A DNA stretch of 25,161 nt from a virus (Duplodnaviria; Caudoviricetes). Each line of letters opens with the position of its first letter. Position 1 is the first letter of the stretch. Below the pieces are notes generated by a model. It ran no database searches. It saw nothing but the letters and a program-made list of their open reading frames with translations, and was not told the origin of the DNA. Shown here piece by piece: positions 4,601 through 25,079 of this stretch. A program made the position numbers and the translations under genes. The DNA is taken from positions 1 through 25,161 of IMG/VR virus record IMGVR_UViG_3300017651_000010. The stretch is one strand, 5' to 3'.

Positions 4601-7207
4601 AAGCCCGGTCTTGACGGTCGCGACATTGCCGCTCACACCGGAAGCCCCGCCGCGACCGGTGAACATGTTCTCGAAGAACTTGTCGATGTTGGCCTGGGCG
4701 ATCTTGGCGAAGCCGCTCGTCAGCCTGCTGAAAAATTCATCCGCGTCTTTGATCGGTCCGGAGAACATATCCGAGAAAATTGCGGCGATCTCCTCCGCGG
4801 CATCGCGTTGATCCTCCATCTGCTTGTTGATCCGTATCGCGTCGGCGACGCGCTGACCGTCGATGCTGTTGAGGTCGAGGCCGATCTGGCGGAGCTGCGC
4901 GTACACGGCGCGATCGGTATCGTTCCGGAACATCTGCCCTCGATCGAACTCAAGCTGTTCGACGGCTCGGGCCGCCTCGATCGCCGCGGCAACCTCCCCG
5001 TACTGCGCAGCAAGGTCTTTCAGCTGGGCGAGCTGATCAGCGGTCAGGGTGCGCCCCTTGTCCGTTGCCTTCTGGATGAGATCCAACTGCATCCGGTAGC
5101 GTTCAGCTTCGCCACCCGTCTTGCCGACCATCTCCATTTCGAGCTTCATTTGCTCGATGCGATCTTGGGCACCTTTCACTACATCGCGATACGCGTTTGC
5201 AGCGGACTGCCCGGCCTTTGCAGATCGTTTCGCAGCCGCTTCAAGCTGGTCGTGCTGCTGCCTGAGTTTATCGGCGAGACTGGTATCAAGCCGCAGAAAG
5301 AAGTCTCTTTCCTCAGCCTGGCCACCGAAGGAAGGGAGACGCCCCGTCTTCGCCGTCGTTTGAACTGCACTGTTCAGCGCATCCACGTTCGCCTTTGCAG
5401 TCAACGCTGCGAGACCTAGTCGCCCAAATTCTTCGATCGCTGCCGACATATCTGGGTTGGCAGAAGAAAGCGCGACAATTGATCTCTGGAGGTCCTGGGC
5501 AGTGATTGTCCCCGACTGCATGCCGCGAGAGAGTTCCGTTAAACTCCCCTCCAAGCGCGCCAGTCGGCCTGTGAGATCATATGGGTTCACTCGATCGATG
5601 GCATTCTGGAGGTTCTGAAACGCGAGGGCAGACTGGTCTAGCCCCTTGACTGCCGACAAACTCTCAAACGACCGCAAGGCCTCATTGGTCAGATCGCGCA
5701 GCTCCTTCGCCACGGATTCCGAAATAACGCCAGCCTCAGACAGCCTGATGATGGCCTCCTGAAATTCCCGAATTTTTGGGCTACCGGCGCTTACAGAGTT
5801 GACAAACTCGCCGATCGCAACCCTCGCGCCGTTGAACCTCGACGCCATGAATCCCATACCGCTTGCGCCGGTTTGCTCGCGGAACATTGCCGCCTGGATG
5901 TCGGCTACAGCTTGTTGGGACGCTTCCAAAATCGCTTGTGCGGCGTTGCGCGCGTCGTCCCTCAGTCTTGCTTCCAGGATGGATGGGCTCTGCTCGACAT
6001 ATTTCCTCTGAGCTTCAGCTGCTTTTTGATATGCCGGGCCAATCTCCTCAATGTTCCGCTTATGCTCCTGCAGAATGTCATCGACGGTTTTCGCGCCGCC
6101 GGAGGCATTCGTGAAGTATGATATCGCGGCGCTTCCGGCGAAGATAAATAAGGTCGCGAGAAGCCCCAACGGGGATAGCAGTCCTCCAATCATTTGCTTG
6201 AGTGCGGCCATAACTCCAGTCAGCTTGCCGCCATACATCGTCACCTGACCGATCTGCTGCGCCCACAGCATGAAGGGGTTCTGCCCCATCATCATCATCA
6301 TCGAGATGTCTTGCATCTGGAACATCAGGTTCTGCGTCTGAGCACGCGCCATGCCTGCGCTCGCGGTGTAGCCCTTGGCCCCATTCGCCGCCACCTGATA
6401 GCGCGCGTTCAGATCAGTAAGTGCCGCACCATGCTCACGCGCGCTGATTGCGCCCACCTTGTGCGCCCGGTTGAGCTCGTTCAGTTCCTGCTCATATTGC
6501 TTCGACAGTGCGAACAACGGGTTGAACTTCGCGCGTAGAGTATCGATTTCAGCACCGTATGCAGCGATGTCAGCACCGCGGGTCGCGCCGCCGAAATCTG
6601 TCCTCACGCCGAGCTGCGCATTGATCGCGTTCTGCGAGGACCGTGCAACGCTTGCAGACTGCTCAGCCGCCGCGTGCCGCGCAGCGCGGGCAAACTCGTT
6701 GGCCGCCGTCGTCGCCATCTGGTATTTACTATTGAGCGTATTAAGCGCCTCGCCGTGCTCGCGCGCGCTGATTGCGCCTACCCGCACTGCGTGGTTGAGG
6801 TCGTCTAGTGAACGCTCATATTGCTTCGACGCTGCGAAAAGAGGATTGTACTTCGCTCTTAGCCGATCAAGCTCCGCACCATATGCCGCGATGTCGGCCG
6901 CACGCAGATCGTGCATCGTCATGCGCTCAATTTGACGGGCAATATGTTCGGCTTCGATGGCCGCACGCTGGGCGATAGCGTTAAAACCCGTCAGCGCTCG
7001 GCTGGCGAGATTTGCGACGGCCCCTTCTGTGCTCTTGGCTTCGCGACCAAGTTTATTGATGCCGGAAACGGCCTTTTCGACAGACGGTACCATCTTCTCA
7101 ACAGATGTATCGACGTTCTTGGCAGCAGCAGAGACAGCACCAAGACGGCGTGCGGTTTCATCCGCCCCGCGCGTCTCGATGGAAATGCCGAGTGCAGAAA
7201 AGGTCAT
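1649..7207 (-). CDS. Tail tape measure protein (1852 aa) with internal lytic transglycosylase-like domain
   Basis: Long, Ala-rich, helical, in the tail module. Lambda-type TMP motif NLMFQMQDI..GQNPF...QQIGQV. Lysozyme-like segment LKKVESSNNY...AYGAYQVM...YVAKV. C-terminal FSSGGYTG...GVVHGREFV motif. Confidence 0.92.
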   Translation of the reverse strand: MTFSALGISIETRGADETARRLGAVSAAAKNVDTSVEKMVPSVEKAVSGINKLGREAKSTEGAVANLASRALTGFNAIAQRAAIEAEHIARQIERMTMHDLRAADIAAYGAELDRLRAKYNPLFAASKQYERSLDDLNHAVRVGAISAREHGEALNTLNSKYQMATTAANEFARAARHAAAEQSASVARSSQNAINAQLGVRTDFGGATRGADIAAYGAEIDTLRAKFNPLFALSKQYEQELNELNRAHKVGAISAREHGAALTDLNARYQVAANGAKGYTASAGMARAQTQNLMFQMQDISMMMMMGQNPFMLWAQQIGQVTMYGGKLTGVMAALKQMIGGLLSPLGLLATLFIFAGSAAISYFTNASGGAKTVDDILQEHKRNIEEIGPAYQKAAEAQRKYVEQSPSILEARLRDDARNAAQAILEASQQAVADIQAAMFREQTGASGMGFMASRFNGARVAIGEFVNSVSAGSPKIREFQEAIIRLSEAGVISESVAKELRDLTNEALRSFESLSAVKGLDQSALAFQNLQNAIDRVNPYDLTGRLARLEGSLTELSRGMQSGTITAQDLQRSIVALSSANPDMSAAIEEFGRLGLAALTAKANVDALNSAVQTTAKTGRLPSFGGQAEERDFFLRLDTSLADKLRQQHDQLEAAAKRSAKAGQSAANAYRDVVKGAQDRIEQMKLEMEMVGKTGGEAERYRMQLDLIQKATDKGRTLTADQLAQLKDLAAQYGEVAAAIEAARAVEQLEFDRGQMFRNDTDRAVYAQLRQIGLDLNSIDGQRVADAIRINKQMEDQRDAAEEIAAIFSDMFSGPIKDADEFFSRLTSGFAKIAQANIDKFFENMFTGRGGASGVSGNVATVKTGLLDQIGGWLDGILSNRKVIAAQNKAITTAASQIPAKPLVGAISSVGTAVTKTTSTIGTTLTSYLDALKKVESSNNYFATGPVTRSGDRAYGAYQVMGRNIPSWTEEALGRSLSVNEFLADRVAQDKTASYQFSKLYDRFGTWNDAISGWFSGQPLSKARTRSDGYNTTEQYVAKVNNALGDTGGIQNAVKIGAKAGVETGITNVATGSTSAGVQAPGMAQGGMGGLRGMLGNALSGFSLGLQSENGAMGGLGGAISGFMSGGPLGAVIGGIAGLLGGIFGKSRRKRQEREQARAELESQRGAIQSLLDAAMGTPSGEFESSWRQMSDEIAKARKLASKAGDSALVKELDLASKTFFDFLVDDWRRGLDGVMKAMESGHGMEGAFVRAQKAITDLADTLVGFVEDAKWFAETGGDYEKAKLTKPANDNGPPGSGPGWYEEIQREQGIMTDAYRVAVERYKGELEKLGIEAIIKTGTGRDAREIAAFASIEDLMKKMESLGVAFDDLGNILTADEVKERADREKELQRAIKDAQEAAQQMALKQLTGADEFTAIETEIQRLQGTAAGLQTTLEKLGMTADEAADAIAKGLTEALAKLRDDYVKDMERSINALSDKGFLNDMMDAQALYKERLKDAKALGISSSLAMQEFSLSLASIATESDVAAADLRKYAKELGIPLSFLKDAVSKLKELETERLAQEAAQATEKRVADARSEIDRLKSAFDSAISAFRSFAKDVKDFRESIRLDSSLSTLSATERLAEARRQYQSTLSLANQGDRDAMSRLTDVSRAYLDQAKQYYASSADYAAIFNSVDSALAKAGAKADEQVTAAQKQIDLLARQISSLQTVNESVLTVARLTSKLTDAVTNYFSVGGKKFSSGGYTGDIGINDVAGVVHGREFVANARTTAMYRPQLEAMQAGTFRPTVVAAGNDNSEALREVARSVAAAGNAQVVAIREEMAGLRSEVAALRRETQIAGDKKNRGAGGNR
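6390..6905 (-). repeat. Two copies of a ~64-aa repeat in the tape measure, 324 nt (108 aa) apart
   Basis: RAADIAAYGAELDRLRAKYNPLFAASKQYE...VGAISAREHG...YQMA versus RGADIAAYGAEIDTLRAKFNPLFALSKQYE...VGAISAREHG...YQVA. Confidence 0.9.
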
Positions 7208-10704: not shown

Positions 10705-11214
10705 TCAGCAGCTTGGTCTCCGCTTTGCCTTCTCGGCACGCGCGAGGCACGGCTCGGTAAAGCTTCCGCGCCAAATGCCTCGTCGTTTGGTCTTCGCGAG
10801 CCTTTGCGCATCGTCATAGAGCCCATCGCTGTATCGCGGCCAATCCACAGCGTTACCGCTCTCAACGAGCCAGCGGTTGACCTCGCGCCCATCGGCGCGA
10901 AAGCAGGTTCCAACGAATCTCTTGTAGCGGTCGCGCTCGACAAACTCACAGCGAGTAGGCCTCGATTCCGCCAGCCAGCCGTCTAACGCAAACGCCGCAT
11001 CCCTTCCGCAACGATACTGTGCGCCATTCTCGTCAGCACATCGTTGCCAGCTTTCGGGCGCGTCGATACCGTTGAACCGGATGCGCACGCCAGCAATTTC
11101 GATAGTGTCACCGTCGACAACAGAAGCGCGGCCGATGATCGGTCCTTGAGCACTCGCCGAGACGGATACGAGTGCTGCAGAGAGCACTACCCCAACGAAC
11201 ACTCTCAATGACAA
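10705..11214 (-). CDS. Secreted thermonuclease (SNase-like)
   Basis: Signal peptide; motifs VVDGDTI, RIRFNGIDAPE, DRYKR, VNRWLVESGNA and AKTKRRGIW. Confidence 0.9.
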   Translation of the reverse strand: MSLRVFVGVVLSAALVSVSASAQGPIIGRASVVDGDTIEIAGVRIRFNGIDAPESWQRCADENGAQYRCGRDAAFALDGWLAESRPTRCEFVERDRYKRFVGTCFRADGREVNRWLVESGNAVDWPRYSDGLYDDAQRLAKTKRRGIWRGSFTEPCLARAEKAKRRPSC

Positions 11215-16268: not shown

Positions 16269-17054
16269 TTACGCTCCGGATTTCGAGGAGGCTGCGCCGT
16301 CCAGCGTTTCCTTCAAGCGCTCCTGGATCTCAGATCGCGCTGTCCACCAATCACCACTCTTGACCGGGACTCTAGCTGAAAGCGTCACACTACTATCGCT
16401 TAGGGTTTCCACTAGGACTTCCGGCTTTGCTCCGGACGCCGAGTAGTCGGTTTGTAGCGACCGAACAACTGATGCTCTGACCTGATCGATGTCCGCTGAC
16501 CTGGGCACGTTGAAAGTCACCTCGACGATACGCGAGCGCTCCCGGCTGTAGTTCAGGATTTTTGCGTTCGATAGCTTCGAATTCGGCGCAAAAATGTAGA
16601 TCCCATCCCTGGTTCTCAGTTGGGTAGAGAACAGTCCGATCTCAACAACCGTGCCAACGATACCCTCCGCATCGATGTAGTCGCCGGCATTAAACGGCCG
16701 AAGGAAAACCAACATTATACCTGCGGCGATGTTCGACAGCGTTCCTTGAAGAGAAAGAGCGATCGCTAGGCCCGCAGCGCCGAGAACCGCTAGGATTGAG
16801 GCTGTTTGCACGCCGAACTGACCTAGCACCACAATTATCGTGACGAACAAAATGGCATACTGAACGACTTGGCCTACGATTGGCGCTACCGTCTGATCGT
16901 GATTCAATCGAACCGCCAAAAATCCTGTCACGTAGCGTGAAATTGTCCGCGCGATGAACCAGCCGGCCACCAAGACAATCAGCGCAACAAACATTGACCA
17001 GACGTTGGCCAGTATCCAAGCGACGGATATCCCGAAAATCGCGTCATTGTTCAC
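16269..17054 (-). CDS. mscS: Small-conductance mechanosensitive channel MscS (moron)
   Basis: Three TM helices; LGAAGLAIALSLQGTLSNIAAGIML..RPF..GD.I...G.V.EIGLFST...PNS...NYS; GAGGAG RBS. Confidence 0.95.
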   Translation of the reverse strand: MNNDAIFGISVAWILANVWSMFVALIVLVAGWFIARTISRYVTGFLAVRLNHDQTVAPIVGQVVQYAILFVTIIVVLGQFGVQTASILAVLGAAGLAIALSLQGTLSNIAAGIMLVFLRPFNAGDYIDAEGIVGTVVEIGLFSTQLRTRDGIYIFAPNSKLSNAKILNYSRERSRIVEVTFNVPRSADIDQVRASVVRSLQTDYSASGAKPEVLVETLSDSSVTLSARVPVKSGDWWTARSEIQERLKETLDGAASSKSGA

Positions 17055-19650: not shown

Positions 19651-20853
19651 TCAGTTGACCGTTGCGGTGGACTTGCCGGCCTTCATGTCGGCAATCATCT
19701 TCGTATAGGCGTCGGCCGTGGACTTGTCGGCGTCACCACTGGTGACAATGCCGTCCTTGACCACGCTGGCGAAAGGATCGGCATCAGCGATCTTCTTCGC
19801 GTCTTCGGCGAGGATGTCGAAACGGGCATCGATGTAAGCCTGGGCCTTATCCTTCACCGCGGCATCGCCGAGCTTGGCGACGACGGCGGCCTTGCGGATA
19901 TCGGCATCGCTGAGACCTTCGGTCTTGACGTCTTTGGCGATGGCCTTGGCTGTGGCGACGAGATCGGCCCGAGCAGCCACGAGGGCGTCGAGTGCTGCGC
20001 CGTCCACGACCTTGGCCTTGAGAGCGTCGATCTCCGCATCCTTCTTGGCGAGATCGGCGTCCTTGGCGGCGATGTCCTTGTCCTTGGCGTCGATTGCGGC
20101 GGCGTGAGCCTTCTCCGCATCGGCGAGCTTGGCTGCGGACGCGGCTTCGCCGTCGGTCAGCCTCTTTCCGGCATCAACGAGCCGCTGCTGGAGCGTGTTG
20201 ATCACCGTGGCGCCCTGGTCGGTCACCTCGACCGGGATACCATCGACGGTTACCGTCTTCAGGGTCATGATCTTTTCCTTTTCGGGTTGGCGATCATTGG
20301 TCACAGGGGCAATGCCCCACGAATTCGCACCGTCGCCGATGCGAGCCTTTGAACCAGCCCGCGCCTTATCCACGATGGCGAGATGGTTGATCTTGATGTT
20401 CGATTGCTGGGCGTCGAAGGCCGAGCCATCCGGTGCCACGCCGTCGCCCCAGACAAGCTCGCAGGTGTAGCCGGCGGACAATTCTCGCTTCCCGCTCTCG
20501 ACGGCCCGGATGGCGGCAGCGTCCTTTAGGATCAGCGGCAGGTGCACCCACTCACCGTCCTTCTTGGCCGCGGTGCTGACCTCGCCAACGGCGAGCTGTT
20601 TCCAGTTGTCGGCCGTCACTGCCTCTGCCGGGTGGCCCATGGTCACCGGAGCGTGCGTGAAGCTCTGGAGACTGTCGGCGGCGAAGACCTGATCGGCCGG
20701 GCGGTAAACGCGCACCACAGACATCTCAGGCTTACCCACCTCGTGACCCGCATAGAGTTGGATGCCGGTGCGGACTGACCGGACTTCGGCAACGAGGTAT
20801 CCATCGGCCGTCCGACGCGTGCCGGACACCGCTACAGCGTCGGTGAATTGCAT
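19651..20853 (-). CDS. Prohead protease/scaffold (DUF2213-like)
   Basis: DGYL, RTGIQ.Y, PVT.GHP, ELSAGY and INHLAIVDKARAG motifs, followed by a coiled-coil scaffold region. Confidence 0.9.
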   Translation of the reverse strand: MQFTDAVAVSGTRRTADGYLVAEVRSVRTGIQLYAGHEVGKPEMSVVRVYRPADQVFAADSLQSFTHAPVTMGHPAEAVTADNWKQLAVGEVSTAAKKDGEWVHLPLILKDAAAIRAVESGKRELSAGYTCELVWGDGVAPDGSAFDAQQSNIKINHLAIVDKARAGSKARIGDGANSWGIAPVTNDRQPEKEKIMTLKTVTVDGIPVEVTDQGATVINTLQQRLVDAGKRLTDGEAASAAKLADAEKAHAAAIDAKDKDIAAKDADLAKKDAEIDALKAKVVDGAALDALVAARADLVATAKAIAKDVKTEGLSDADIRKAAVVAKLGDAAVKDKAQAYIDARFDILAEDAKKIADADPFASVVKDGIVTSGDADKSTADAYTKMIADMKAGKSTATVN

Positions 20854-20856
20854 GGA

Positions 20857-21030
20857 TCAGTCCTTGATGTTCAGGGTACGACGGGTGGAGCGGGCCATGA
20901 TCTGGCGTTGCAAGACGTGGATGCCGTGACGAAATTCGTCGTTGTCGTCAGCATGTTCAACTGGCAGGCGCGTGAAGGCGTTCCACGCATCCACCAAACG
21001 ATCGAAGACTTCGCGCTCCTCGGATGTCAT
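20857..21030 (-). CDS. Unlisted 57-aa helical protein MTSEEREVFDRLVDAWNAFTRLPVEHADDNDEFRHGIHVLQRQIMARSTRRTLNIKD
   Basis: Translated by hand (below the ORF-track cutoff). ATGA overlap with the portal stop; ends 3 nt before the protease ATG; fills the gap exactly. Confidence 0.8.
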   Translation of the reverse strand: MTSEEREVFDRLVDAWNAFTRLPVEHADDNDEFRHGIHVLQRQIMARSTRRTLNIKD

Positions 21031-22877
21031 TCCCCAACGAGTCCCTGCTGCCAGTCCTCGTTGACCTCCTGGAATATCTCCGGACCCAGCACGATCTCAC
21101 CCTGATAGGGCTCGACGTTCGCGAGATCCGGCGCATCCTTGTCGTAGCTGATGGTGATATGCGGCTGGTACTCCGGGTGATCCCACGACGCGCCCTTGTC
21201 AACCATCTCGTCATGACGCCAGCGAAGCATGTTGGAGTTGAACAGCAGGACGCGCGCCTCGCCGAATTTCTCCATCAGTCGGGCACCGCCGCGCGGTATT
21301 TTCACCTCATCTTCCCACGTGCTGCCCATTTCCATCCAATCCACCGGTGTGCGGCTGAATGTGATGGTGACGTGCAGTTCATCGGCTGGCAGCATCGTTT
21401 TGAACCCCTGCCCCTTGGCCCATGCGATGATCTCGGCGGCGTTCAGGACGTCGCGTCGGACATATAGCGTGCGAGGAGCAGCGTCGTTCGCCGCGGACTG
21501 CATCCGTGTCACGTTTGCAGTCTTCGGTGCCTGTGAAACCGCTGCTGCCATAAACTCGTCCTCGGATGGCTCCTGTTCGCTCAGCTTGCCGTATTCTTCC
21601 ATGGCGGCGTCAAGGCCCGGAAGCACGCCATCCTCTACAAGGCGATTGACGAGCGCATCCGAAACGGCCTCACGAGGGATGATCTCCTGACCGAACGTCG
21701 TACCGACGAGTTGCCGGGCAGCATCGGCCGTTAGCTTGAAGATGTCGGCCCGCTCTTTCTCGCTCATCTGCTCCAGAGGAGCCCAGCGATAGTAAACGGC
21801 TGGATCGTGAATTCCCGCTGACCGCTCAAGGCACTCATCCAGTCTCACCATCGCCGGCTGAAACTCCAGCTCCTGCATCGACTGAATGCGGTCGTGATAA
21901 TTCTTCATATCGGCAATCCCGGTCGAATTTAGACCGGCCGGGGACTGGCCGAGGAGACGTGTCACCGGGATGTCAGCAGCGCCCGCCACGATCTGCAGGA
22001 ACGTCATGAGCACATCCGGTAGCCCAGTGAGCTGCGCCGTCTTCGTCTCATACTCTTCCTCTTTATCGAGGAGGAGCGTTCCATTGATGCCTTTGGCCGT
22101 GTTGGCCAAGGTGTATCGCTCCAACAGCTTGCTTCGATAGTCCGCCTGCGCGAGAGACGCCATGAAGTTCGGGATGCGGATGATATCGATCTTCGCCTCG
22201 AACACGAGCGACGCGATGTTCCCCGCGGTGCTGTCCGCGTTCTTCACCGCGTCGAGGGTGGATTGAAGAACACTATCGCCCCAGCCCTGCCCAACATTCG
22301 TGGCAATCTCGTCATCGGCGGGCATCGCGCCAGAGAACAAGACCAACCGCGACGGATGAATGGTGATCTGCTGGCCGTTGTTACCTGCAAGGTTGTAGTT
22401 TTTCGGCTTGCCGTACCATTCCGATTCCGGATCGCGGTCGATCTCGCCGGCGTTCAATTTGCGGCGCGACATCACATTGAGATAGCGGACCCCCCCCTTC
22501 TTGAGACGCTCCACATCGAGCGGTTCGGATGGGTCGGCATCACCCGTTCCGATGTAGATCGCGGCACCACCGAAGAGACGCCCCTTCTGTGCGGCCTCAA
22601 GGATCTTGCCCTTGACATTCAGTCGCTTCTCTTCCTCCTCAATCGCTTCGATCTGCGGTTTCTTCGCCTGCCAATCTCGCCACTTGCGGCAGGCATCAAG
22701 AGCCGGAATGTCCACGATCTTCCGGGGAAGCCAGGCCGTCGTGTATGCGGCGATCAACTGCTCATCGGTCAGATAGGCCTGTGCATAGAAAGAGCCCGCG
22801 GCCTTGTCCCGATCGGTGCCCATCCGCGACACGAGATTTGTCAAGCTGTCGCGAAACAGCGCGATCACATTTGTCAT
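21027..22877 (-). CDS. Portal protein (DUF1073-like) fused to a C-terminal Acb1-like 2H phosphoesterase
   Basis: N-terminal ~450 aa has portal motifs (KIVDIPA.D..R.W, RLFGGA, IHPSRL, AGAADIPVTRLLGQSPAGLNSTG..D..NY.D). C-terminal ~150 aa has LYV, LHVTITFSR and YQPHITISY. Confidence 0.9.
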   Translation of the reverse strand: MTNVIALFRDSLTNLVSRMGTDRDKAAGSFYAQAYLTDEQLIAAYTTAWLPRKIVDIPALDACRKWRDWQAKKPQIEAIEEEEKRLNVKGKILEAAQKGRLFGGAAIYIGTGDADPSEPLDVERLKKGGVRYLNVMSRRKLNAGEIDRDPESEWYGKPKNYNLAGNNGQQITIHPSRLVLFSGAMPADDEIATNVGQGWGDSVLQSTLDAVKNADSTAGNIASLVFEAKIDIIRIPNFMASLAQADYRSKLLERYTLANTAKGINGTLLLDKEEEYETKTAQLTGLPDVLMTFLQIVAGAADIPVTRLLGQSPAGLNSTGIADMKNYHDRIQSMQELEFQPAMVRLDECLERSAGIHDPAVYYRWAPLEQMSEKERADIFKLTADAARQLVGTTFGQEIIPREAVSDALVNRLVEDGVLPGLDAAMEEYGKLSEQEPSEDEFMAAAVSQAPKTANVTRMQSAANDAAPRTLYVRRDVLNAAEIIAWAKGQGFKTMLPADELHVTITFSRTPVDWMEMGSTWEDEVKIPRGGARLMEKFGEARVLLFNSNMLRWRHDEMVDKGASWDHPEYQPHITISYDKDAPDLANVEPYQGEIVLGPEIFQEVNEDWQQGLVGE

Positions 22878-22920: not shown

Positions 22921-23006
22921 TAGGTTTCCGATTTGCCGGGAGGTGCCGACCACCAGCTCGTCCCGGCCATCAGCGCTTTGCACCCCACCTTAGAAAGGGC
23001 ACCGTC

Positions 23007-23483
23007 ATGACCACCGATCAGGAATTCGCCCACAAGTTCTGGAAGTCCATCCGATCCGACATGACCGCTATGGTCGGGACGAAGGATGTTCACCCTAAAC
23101 CGCTCACCGCCCAGTTCGACGGCGACCGAAAAACGATCTTCTTCTTTACCGCCAAGGGTACCGAACTGGCCGAGAGTGCGTCGTCGCCGGTTGATGCGAC
23201 AATTATCTACTCATCCAAGGGTCATGATCTGTTCGCCACGGTCCATGGCAAACTCGAAGTCGACAACGACCCCGTCCTCATCGATCGCCTGTGGAACCGC
23301 TTCGTAGCGGCATGGTTCGAGGAAGGCAAAGACGATCCCAAACTCTGCCTGCTGCGTTTCGAGCCCGGTGAAGCAGAGATTTGGAAAGACGCGTCAAGCA
23401 TCGTCGCCGGTCTCAAACTGTTCCTTGGCATGGGTGATCCCAAAGAGGACTACGAGGATAGCGTCGCTACGTTAAAGCTTTAG
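23007..23483 (+). CDS. General stress protein 26-like, pyridoxamine 5'-phosphate oxidase-like FMN-binding protein (moron)
   Basis: True start ATG 23007 after AAAGGG. Motifs IFFFT, IDRLWNRFVAAWFEEGKDDPKLCLLRF and AEIW. Confidence 0.9.
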   Translation: MTTDQEFAHKFWKSIRSDMTAMVGTKDVHPKPLTAQFDGDRKTIFFFTAKGTELAESASSPVDATIIYSSKGHDLFATVHGKLEVDNDPVLIDRLWNRFVAAWFEEGKDDPKLCLLRFEPGEAEIWKDASSIVAGLKLFLGMGDPKEDYEDSVATLKL

Positions 23484-23492
23484 CAGCAACAC

Positions 23493-23519
23493 CTAGCGGC
23501 CGGCGCGGCTGGCCGCTAG
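23493..23519. terminator. Hairpin between the convergent stress gene and terL
   Basis: CTAGCGGCC-N9-GGCCGCTAG; includes the terL stop codon. Confidence 0.55.
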
Positions 23520-24949
23520 ACATTCATGAGTGTGAATGTGGAGGTGAGGTTCACATTGTCTGCAGCGATCATCGCATCAGCCAGATTGTGAGATTTCACG
23601 CCCAAGTCCTTCTTTAGCTTTGCCTTCGGCACAACGCGCCTCTTTCCCTCGCTCTCGACCCACCATGGCACACAAAGCTCAGTGAAGAGCGCATCAAGCT
23701 TCTCCGCGCCCATCGTTGATGAGAACGACAAGATATCTTCAGGCTTGATTGCCTGCCCCCGTGTGATCGCATTGAATGTGAGCATCGCCCGGCGCGCAGT
23801 GTTTGCCCAAGCTTGAGCCTTTAGGTTCAGGTACTCGTTTTTGTTGAGCGGGCTATTGCTATTCTGCGGGTCGCTCGGCTTCTCGCCGTCCATGACAGCG
23901 CCGCCAGCGTGAAACGCGAAATGCTCGACCTTGGCGCCGTTTTCTTTGTTCTGCTCGTCTATGTAGCCACCGACGAAAGCCCCAACGCCGATCGTGTCAT
24001 ATGATACCGTCGCGCCGGCTAACTTCGCCTTGGCCCAGACCTTCTTCGCGTTTTGGACGAGCTCGTCCTTGCCGGACGACCAGTCCACAGCGTCGGTGAA
24101 GACGCCTTCGATCTTGTCAGCAGTGGCGCACTTGTCTTCGCCGTCATCGGCCGGGTCGAAGCCGATGATGTTACGGCCCGTCAGGCTGATCTTCAGAACC
24201 TGATGAGCATCGACACAGGCGTCGAGCCACCGGCGCTTGAAGATCGAAAGCTCTCCGTCCCCGAGGGGCACACCGCCATAGATGTGCTCGAAGAGTTCCG
24301 GATTCGCTCTCTGCATCGCAGCGATATCGCGCAATGCCTTCTGCGAGAGGAACGGATTTTCCGTCCAGTCGATCTTGTGCACCACCGTGTGCGGCGGAGT
24401 GTTTACGACGAAGTTCTTCCAGACATAGTCGGTGACGAGCTTGGGGTTGAAGAGCAGGATAGCGAGGCTGTCTTCCTTACGGATCGTCGGCCCGATAACC
24501 GTCCATTGCTCCTGGGTGAGGTTTTCCGCCTCCTCCACCCAGAGGATATCGACGTCGGACGTGCCCTTGATGTCCTCCAAATTGCGTTCGATGCCGTAGA
24601 AGATGAACTCCGCGCCGGTGCGCCGGTGGATGATCGTCGTCTTCTGGACGTCGTAGGCAGCCTGCAGCCCCAGATGCGATATCGCCCATTTCAGTTCGGT
24701 GTAAACCGAATCCTGAATGCGGTTCTGGAAGCGCCGGATGCAGAGGACGCGCATCCTGACCGCAACATGGTCGACCAGTCTCACCAACTGGCAGGCCGTG
24801 TCTCGTGTCTTTGAGCTTGACCGGCCGCCGTGAAGAACCGCGATATCGGCTTTGCCGAAGAAGACCTCTTCCCAGAAATCGAACAGCGCCGGGTTGGTAA
24901 GGTGTGCGCTGCTCTCTACCTCTTTTCGCCGCGCAGCACCTGACGCCAT
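23516..24949 (-). CDS. terL: Terminase large subunit (PBSX-like)
   Basis: Walker A HGGRSSSKT, Walker B ILWVEEAE, FNP motif, nuclease GFDPAD and SHNLADA. Start uncertain (24949 or 24973). Confidence 0.93.
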   Translation of the reverse strand: MASGAARRKEVESSAHLTNPALFDFWEEVFFGKADIAVLHGGRSSSKTRDTACQLVRLVDHVAVRMRVLCIRRFQNRIQDSVYTELKWAISHLGLQAAYDVQKTTIIHRRTGAEFIFYGIERNLEDIKGTSDVDILWVEEAENLTQEQWTVIGPTIRKEDSLAILLFNPKLVTDYVWKNFVVNTPPHTVVHKIDWTENPFLSQKALRDIAAMQRANPELFEHIYGGVPLGDGELSIFKRRWLDACVDAHQVLKISLTGRNIIGFDPADDGEDKCATADKIEGVFTDAVDWSSGKDELVQNAKKVWAKAKLAGATVSYDTIGVGAFVGGYIDEQNKENGAKVEHFAFHAGGAVMDGEKPSDPQNSNSPLNKNEYLNLKAQAWANTARRAMLTFNAITRGQAIKPEDILSFSSTMGAEKLDALFTELCVPWWVESEGKRRVVPKAKLKKDLGVKSHNLADAMIAADNVNLTSTFTLMNV

Positions 24950-25079
24950 GTCTTGTCTTCCGATTGCTCCCATTCGCCCGGGGCACCAAGCTCGGCTTTG
25001 GCAGGAGCGTAGCTGCCCTGCATCTTGTTCGCCTCTGCGATGGCAGAGATGGCCACACGCGCGTCCTTCTCCGCTTCCC
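24916..25079 (-). pseudogene. terS: 3' remnant of probable terminase small subunit, cut by an IS21-like element
   Basis: Overlaps the terL start; helical REAEKDARVAISAIAEANKMQG; the upstream part of the listed ORF is IS sequence. Confidence 0.6.

Follow-up and report, generated by a model that had tools for sequence, protein, structure and literature searches.

The window analysed here is a linear stretch of 25,161 nucleotides, positions 1 to 25,161 of the IMG/VR virus record IMGVR_UViG_3300017651_000010 (Duplodnaviria; Caudoviricetes), which is about 48% complete and is a viral fragment without a host genome. On its minus strand, one open reading frame (ORF) encodes a phage portal protein whose C-terminal part is a domain of the Acb1 family. 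Acb1 is the product of gene 57B of phage T4, and both its chemistry and its role against the cyclic oligonucleotide-based antiphage signaling system (CBASS) have been described (Hobbs 2022, PMC9117128). The fusion of a portal with an intact Acb1-like domain had been proposed from the letters of the window, without database searches (hereafter the sequence-only reading), and it was supported in all the tests that were run.

Portal body and C-terminal domain

The protein can be described as composed of a portal body, a linker and a C-terminal domain, which lie in a single open frame (Table 1). Neither a stop codon nor a frameshift separates the two domains, and a six-frame search of the window found no stop inside the Acb1 match. 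The portal body, recognized by Phage_portal_3, also matches the NCBIfam family TIGR01555, which covers residues 10-392 with 263 bits against a cut-off of 196. Its best fold match is the portal of phage Pam3 (8hds_A, with an expect value (E) of 7e-30 and 45% identity), and other portals, 8fvh_O and 9b41_A, were matched as well. The protein is thus placed in the portal family by its scores above the cut-offs, its portal fold and the large terminase gene that adjoins it. Furthermore, phrog_146, labelled 'portal protein', matches residues 2-611 over positions 17-586 of its 587-position profile, so that the PHROG portal family itself contains the Acb1 domain.

Table 1 Features of the portal-Acb1 ORF and of its two main neighbours in the window.
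Feature	Residues	Positions	Strand	Support
Whole portal-Acb1 ORF	616 and stop codon	21027..22877	minus	ORF list, uninterrupted
Portal body, Phage_portal_3 (PF06381)	40-387	21717..22760	minus	E 3.9e-108, 362 bits
Linker, acidic and Ala-rich, hypervariable, putative recombination breakpoint zone	430-468	21474..21590	minus	models, alignment
D465-A466-x-P468 where the linker meets the domain, immediately outside the Pfam Acb1 model	465-468	21474..21485	minus	D, A and P each in 80/80 viral loci
Acb1-family 2H phosphodiesterase domain (PF23474)	469-611	21045..21473	minus	147 bits (protein), 151 bits (six-frame)
First catalytic HxT, H502-V-T504	502-504	21366..21374	minus	aligned to first H-x-T of 7T26
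Second catalytic HxT, H573-I-T575	573-575	21153..21161	minus	aligned to PHIT of 7T26
W609 in C-terminal 'EDW'	609	21051..21053	minus	aligned to C-terminal Trp of FBB1 Acb1 ('nedwq' vs 'dlews')
Large terminase, upstream neighbour of the portal		23516..24973	minus	PF04466, E 1e-37
DUF2213 protein, PHROG label 'head maturation protease'		19651..20853	minus	PF09979, E 5e-53; phrog_530, E 2.6e-104

The match of the C-terminal domain to PF23474 is far beyond chance, since it spans profile positions 1-143 of 144 with an E of 4e-43 and 147 bits against a gathering cut-off of 27, and it makes the domain a member of this family. The two HxT motifs read on the minus strand as CAC-GTC-ACC and CAT-ATC-ACC, exactly at the positions where the sequence-only reading had put them. 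The other segments that it had noted in the domain, LYV (residues 471-473), LRWRH (551-555), GA..D...Y.PHIT.SY (562-578) and a terminal E...DW (604-609), were all found. The location that it gave for the domain, 21027..21480, was right, but the limits need adjustment: 21027 is the first base of the stop codon, and the conserved start lies slightly upstream, at D465 (21485). In a phmmer search against the PDB, Acb1 of phage FBB1 (7T26/7T27) was found with an E of 1.4e-11, in an alignment that pairs both HxT motifs as well as the C-terminal Trp, and the Pam3 portal chain (8HDS, residues 463-616) with an E of 2.1e-39. When the domain alone was searched by tblastn, it reached gene 57B of isolated T4-type phages, with about 30% identity and E from 4e-4 to 4e-11.

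For the last 157 residues, AlphaFold gave a model with a predicted local distance difference test score (pLDDT) of 93 and a predicted template modelling score of 0.86. Foldseek with this model, a comparison that the sequence-only reading had suggested, ranked the Acb1 structures first, 7T26 with an E of 2.2e-9 (template modelling scores 0.66/0.75) and 7T27 with 1.5e-8, followed by the phosphodiesterase of phage BCSR5 (9Q2Y) and by LigT at 3.6e-5. The family LigT_PEase (PF02834) scores 22.0 bits on the whole protein, under its cut-off of 23.3. On the isolated domain it reaches 26.4 bits, over 28 residues only near the second HxT (profile positions 21-47 of 87). For 2_5_RNA_ligase2 (PF13563), 16-21 bits were obtained against a cut-off of 27, below it in both tests, and the domain is not a member of the LigT or 2'-5' RNA ligase families by these scores. 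Based on the Pfam score, the PDB sequence match, the Foldseek ranking and the tblastn link to 57B, the domain groups with Acb1 and not with LigT. A grouping with LigT and a break between the two domains were the outcomes that the sequence-only reading had named as speaking against it; neither was found.

The described features of Acb1 are the 2H fold, a tetrad formed by the two HxT motifs, aromatic residues that stack on the bases, W147 among them, and a lid at the C-terminus, closing over the ligand (Hobbs 2022, PMC9117128). Acb1 is further characterized by a metal-independent cleavage of 3'3'-cGAMP and other cyclic di- and trinucleotides of CBASS, and by the rescue of phages from CBASS. By alignment, W609 corresponds to the C-terminal Trp of 7T26, in a lid whose last residues are modelled with low confidence (pLDDT 63 and 37). 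The C-terminal domain is very probably, as predicted from these sequence and model comparisons, an Acb1-type enzyme.

Conservation, linker and distribution of the fusion

For comparison, we used the best 80 of the 402 IMG/VR stretches that encode a relative, which contain 73 distinct ORFs (individual loci are designated by L numbers, with positions within the locus in parentheses). In all 80 viral-contig loci, the domain is in frame with the portal body. Residues H502, T504, H573, Y472, W514, Y570 and E600 are each present in 80/80 loci, T575 in 79 (Ser in the remaining one) and W609 in 77. The pattern used in the search for loci required YxPH[IV][TS], so that the conservation of the second HxT is partly a matter of ascertainment, while that of the first is unaffected. 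The HxT motifs are also invariant, or nearly so, in the alignments A1 and A2. The ratio of nonsynonymous to synonymous substitution rates (dN/dS), calculated for pairs with the ten closest loci among the 80, is 0.05-0.16 for the domain, 0.05-0.30 for the portal body and 0.13-0.45 for the linker, the highest of the three regions; these ratios are rough, with dS near saturation. The Acb1 domain is shown to be under strong purifying selection.

The linker is predicted to be disordered, with model pLDDT below 50 for residues 430-439, 441-443 and 445-469, and its variable alignment columns are 441-464. It also appears to be the place where the Acb1 module is exchanged. Among the 73 distinct ORFs, identity to the window over the portal body correlates weakly with identity over the domain (Spearman 0.46). 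L004 is 32-58% identical over residues 1-440 and 92-100% over residues 481-600, while L073, with 85-100% identity over residues 41-440, falls to about 60% in the domain. The identity switches at about residues 440-480, which is the linker, in L004, L073 and L009. These sequence comparisons suggest that recombination at the linker moves the module independently of the portal body. An internal start that would give a free Acb1 was considered and rejected as a general feature: among the 68 distinct ORFs in which the motif was found (another 5 distinct ORFs went unscored), only 22 have an ATG in the 15 codons upstream, and a Shine-Dalgarno-like motif accompanies it in only 4 of those. In the window, M459 is located six codons before the invariant DAxP and has no Shine-Dalgarno-like motif; some short database proteins start near there.

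The C-terminus of the portal carries further effectors in some relatives. In L049 (163-2745), the order is portal, Acb1 and ADP-ribosyltransferase (ADPrib_exo_Tox), and in L072 (1830-4223) and L080 (2076-4508) it is portal, Acb1 and a PBECR3 nuclease. In a Methylobacterium prophage, L112 (1103-4369), a spacer of about 370 residues separates the Acb1 domain from PBECR3, and the portal-Acb1 protein of L064 (1917-5198) has a tail of 408 residues without family assignment. The closest portal body from an isolated phage, that of Rhizobium phage RHph_N28_2 (L001, 3001-4897; 83% identical), ends at 481 residues without Acb1 and is followed by a separate gene for a PBECR3 nuclease of 119 residues. The position after the portal body thus holds different effectors in near relatives.

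Among 2049 phage records with related portals, there are 33 whose match extends over 80% or more of the protein; these include phages of Rhizobium, Sinorhizobium, Aminobacter, Pseudomonas syringae, Synechococcus and Pseudanabaena. A search with the domain among proteins of 276-2000 residues gave 1729 matches among 2002 candidates. The 120 best matches listed all combine PF06381 with PF23474; for many of them, NCBI or UniRef give the name 'anti-CBASS protein Acb1 family protein'. Of 39 loci from bacterial genomes, 35 pass a strict test of fusion and L109 is effectively fused, while L099 is frameshifted, L115 truncated and L122 a remnant. The hosts are mostly Alphaproteobacteria (Shinella, with 92% identity in the domain, Phyllobacterium, Pararhizobium, Roseovarius, Aureimonas, Methylobacterium and Caulobacter), together with Xanthomonas.

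Stand-alone close relatives were also considered. The 101 short proteins listed come mostly from contigs of 1-3 kb, and 9 of them contain a piece of PF06381, so that most look like fragments. P0052, a protein of 171 residues annotated as a free hypothetical protein in Ensifer adhaerens, maps at 99.4% identity to positions 2462-2974 of L117, inside a 644-residue ORF whose open frame runs through the portal. In rhizobia, some gene calls for a 'stand-alone' Acb1 may therefore be annotation artefacts. For three short proteins from long contigs (P0010, P0029 and P0041), no match of at least 95% identity was present among the fetched loci.

Gene neighbourhood

Profile scans of the window ORFs placed all structural genes on the minus strand. 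The head genes are, in order, those for the large terminase, portal-Acb1, the DUF2213 protein, the cement protein, the major capsid protein, the adaptor and head closure. They are followed by genes for a MuF-like head morphogenesis protein, the neck, the tail terminator, the major tail protein, a chaperone and a tape measure of 1852 residues. Of the 73 eligible viral loci, 71 have a DUF2213 homologue downstream of the fused portal, and we infer that the DUF2213 protein is a candidate for the enzyme that would free the Acb1 domain. No PDB relative of this protein was found beyond a weak ubiquitin-like stretch at residues 201-243. There, single ubiquitin is matched with E of 0.03-0.7 and lower E come only from polyubiquitin chains; the stretch may be a beta-grasp insert or may be due to chance.

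A short ORF of 57 residues (20857-21030, minus strand) overlaps the end of the portal ORF by four bases (ATGA). It matches phrog_13916 with an E of 3e-18, and the label of this family, 'DNA ligase', is implausible for 57 residues. A search of 79 eligible related loci gave no homologue downstream of the portal. In Rhizobium phage RHph_TM3_3_3 (L002), which is the nearest full-length relative, portal-Acb1 is followed by a 673-residue protein (4827-6848) of phrog_8480, 'lysophospholipase L1-like esterase', at the place where the window carries the 57-residue ORF and the DUF2213 gene.

Between the portal and the terminase, a gene on the opposite strand (22992-23483, plus) encodes a pyridoxamine 5'-phosphate oxidase-like protein (Pyrid_ox_like, 103 bits). 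Homologues are absent from all 80 related viral loci, and the gene therefore looks like a recently acquired moron. A gene for an MscS-type mechanosensitive channel (16269-17054, minus strand; MS_channel_2nd with 77 bits, together with the transmembrane and C-terminal domains) is located between the adaptor and head-closure genes and has no PHROG or PADLOC match; it is an unusual cargo in a phage structural operon. In the tail-gene region, a staphylococcal-nuclease-like (SNase) gene (10705-11214, minus strand) has a Pfam score of 40 bits and a weak PADLOC match to the SNc+LTD model. This was the only match given by the PADLOC models of defence systems on eight ORFs of the window other than the portal ORF.

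Possible roles and comparison with known systems

Based on these results, an account can be proposed in which the portal bears an enzyme that would destroy defence signals. By analogy with Acb1 of T4 and FBB1, the substrates would be cyclic di- and trinucleotides. The C-terminal crown and barrel of portals face the interior of the head, which would place the domain inside the capsid, in twelve copies per particle. It would then be set free within the disordered linker, the neighbouring DUF2213 protein being perhaps responsible, and its ejection into the cell would quench signalling before any phage gene is expressed. That the domain has an anti-signalling role is probable. Its delivery by the virion, freed at the linker and leaving with the DNA, is the favoured fate, although at less than an even chance. 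The account as a whole, a portal-borne Acb1-family enzyme that cleaves CBASS-type signals, is enclosed in twelve copies in the head and is likely released with the DNA, is put forward tentatively, at somewhat less than an even chance.

Delivery is favoured because the covalent tie has been kept despite the swapping of modules, and simple co-expression would not require such a tie; the tether itself appears to be under selection. It is favoured, moreover, because an ADP-ribosyltransferase and an RNase, which act on host macromolecules, share the same tether. Finally, effectors that are packaged in the head and injected are an established theme, as with T4 Alt, cited as such in PMC5512222, and with a virion ejection protein reported to block CBASS (10.1101/2025.07.23.666291).

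Several points weigh against this account. At ejection the portal remains in the capsid; delivery therefore needs a cleavage, and to our knowledge DUF2213 proteins have no known cleavage motif, 'protease' being only their PHROG label. Pam3 is the only solved virion with this fusion; its portal coordinates (8HDS) contain 442 of 621 residues, with a match confined to the portal body, and the Pam3 chain is absent from the Foldseek matches of the Acb1 domain alone. The missing Pam3 domain fits a flexible tether, a removal or a loss, and the coordinates do not tell the three apart. In the available text of the Pam3 paper (PMC9942802), the portal has five canonical parts, with the barrel and crown innermost, and no enzyme domain is mentioned; the mass-spectrometry table of the virion gives a '+' per protein, and the text of the PNAS supplement contains no residue ranges. 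The same paper describes a channel of 24-64 Angstrom, and a folded domain of 17 kDa would therefore have to unfold in order to pass. In the phmmer alignment, Q603 takes the place of E141, a residue of Acb1 that contacts the base, and this column is variable (E in 37, A in 20 and Q in 11 of 80 loci), so that the substrate range may differ from that of T4 Acb1. The adjoining E604 is nearly invariant, and since the tail is weakly aligned, a shift of one residue is possible. No cognate CBASS is demonstrable for the window, because it is a viral fragment without a host genome. The CD-NTase marker SMODS (PF18144) is over its cut-off in 10 of 30 genomes with such prophages, a count with no matched control, and it is not matched in the two genomes of Shinella (G001 and G002), which by identity are the nearest hosts. 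These 30 genomes represent 30 of the 39 genome loci, the others being L091 and L111, which are second loci, and the loci L094, L096, L098, L099, L104, L106 and L116 from metagenome-assembled genomes. In the published texts available, in line with the sequence-only reading, no enzyme assay of any portal-fused form was found. The activity could also be a liability for the phage, since a broad Acb1 activity can trigger the Panoptes system (review, PMC13728456).

The same enzyme with the same target might never be injected, and might act in the producing cell on free subunits, rings and unfilled procapsids, the copies incorporated in heads being a dead end. The activity would then arise alongside the late head proteins by which CBASS is triggered. 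We regard this as a serious minority possibility. Twelve enzyme copies per virion and action at the head-assembly site were both put forward by the sequence-only reading. It needs neither a cleavage nor a passage through the tail, and it agrees with the location of the gene in the late head module, between the terminase and the protease and capsid genes, as well as with the domain not being seen in the Pam3 virion coordinates. By our estimate, the portal subunits of one burst far outnumber twelve injected copies. Late virion assembly is reported to activate type I CBASS, and escape mutations were reported in genes for the prohead's protease, the capsid and the tail fibre (10.1101/2023.05.21.541620). 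However, a separate gene in the operon would serve such a role equally well, and yet the link is kept in 80/80 viral loci despite linker swapping, and the apparently stand-alone P0052 lies in an ORF open through the portal. An ADP-ribosyltransferase and an RNase on the tether would also make little sense in a cell that is about to lyse.

Other alternatives concern the substrate. It is improbable that the domain targets mainly signals other than those of CBASS, such as the cyclic oligoadenylates of type III CRISPR or different nucleotide messengers, so that anti-CBASS would not be its main role in these hosts. The substrate range of viral 2H enzymes varies by structural group, and for group 3, to which T4 Acb1 belongs, the substrates also include messengers of type III CRISPR (10.1101/2025.08.21.671373). 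The variability of the residue aligned to E141 and the 20 of 30 prophage-bearing host genomes without a SMODS match over cut-off would agree with such targets. The closest characterized relatives by sequence and fold are, on the other hand, Acb1 proteins, for which CBASS di- and trinucleotides are the shown targets, and the aromatic residues, including the lid Trp, are conserved. Less probable still, to the point of being quite unlikely, is a LigT-like enzyme that heals RNA ends, a 2',3'-cyclic phosphodiesterase repairing tRNA or mRNA cut by host anticodon nucleases. The 2H superfamily membership, the LigT_PEase score over cut-off on 28 residues of the isolated domain, the finding of LigT structures by Foldseek, and the label 'RNA ligase' on PHROG 755 and on homologues in many phage records point in this direction. 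Acb1 is nevertheless ahead by more than 120 bits and ranks higher among structures, the whole protein scores under the LigT_PEase cut-off, and neither an RNA ligase nor a polynucleotide kinase was found among the window ORFs scanned. The label 'RNA ligase' on 57B homologues is older than the work on Acb1 (Hobbs 2022, PMC9117128).

If the portal-borne enzyme is active and delivered by the virion, the phage would bring a ready-made signal-degrading enzyme into the cell. This would change the view of how the early signalling of CBASS, and possibly also that of type III CRISPR, can be blunted, and phage heads would have in the portal C-terminus a natural place through which cargo is loaded. Isolated phages that carry portal-Acb1 exist. 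A more elaborate version, a minority possibility in its entirety, would see the portal C-terminus as a recombining dock, with modules swapped in the linker, from which twelve copies of Acb1, joined in some phages by an ADP-ribosyltransferase or PBECR3, are cut at the linker and fired with the DNA into the next cell, quenching CBASS before phage genes are expressed.

Compared with Acb1 of T4 (57B) and of FBB1 (PDB 7T26/7T27), the domain is alike in its full-length family match, its HxT/HxT motifs, its 2H fold, its aromatic residues and its C-terminal Trp, with an identity of about 27-30%. The differences are that known Acb1 is a free protein of about 150 residues while here it is the C-terminal domain of a 616-residue portal, that the domain lies in a late structural gene, and that it has Q at the E141 position and an invariant DAxP before it. 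With LigT (PF02834; E. coli LigT, PDB 5LDM), it shares the 2H superfamily and the catalytic motif, with a much weaker match in sequence and fold. The portals of Pam3 (gp3, 8HDS), of the Rhizobium phages RHEph04, RHEph05, RHEph06 and RHph_TM3_3_3, of Synechococcus phage Yong-M2-251 and of Pseudomonas phage phiPSA1 have the same two domains, with identities of 45-76%.

The joining of effectors to portal or MuF proteins has been described for 'polyvalent proteins' (PMC5512222, PMC9503650), where 2H domains are joined to portals in the same way and the PBECR and ADP-ribosyltransferase partners belong to the same families. The sense given there to a fused effector, one covalently joined to a head-assembly protein, applies here, as the two domains are encoded by a single ORF in the window and in 80/80 viral loci. 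A J Bacteriol paper of 2017 (PMC5512222) proposed that 2H domains fused to MuF or portal could degrade the nucleotides of nucleotide-activated defence systems, and a Viruses paper of 2022 (PMC9503650) that such fusions suggest packaging in the head and injection to counter immune signalling. These are predictions from comparative genomics that predate the characterization of Acb1. The words 'portal' and 'fused' are absent from the available text of Hobbs 2022 (PMC9117128), and 'portal' from that of a 2025 survey of viral 2H phosphodiesterases (10.1101/2025.08.21.671373). The portal-Acb1 fusion is, accordingly, already known: its architecture is present in Pfam, PHROGs, NCBI and UniRef names and the PDB, as the sequence-only reading had guessed of family annotations, and its proposed role has been in print since 2017. 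What the present analysis adds to these known systems is the Pam3 coordinates without the domain, the effectors appended after Acb1, the breakpoints that point to recombination in the linker, and the in-frame fusion in 80/80 viral loci.

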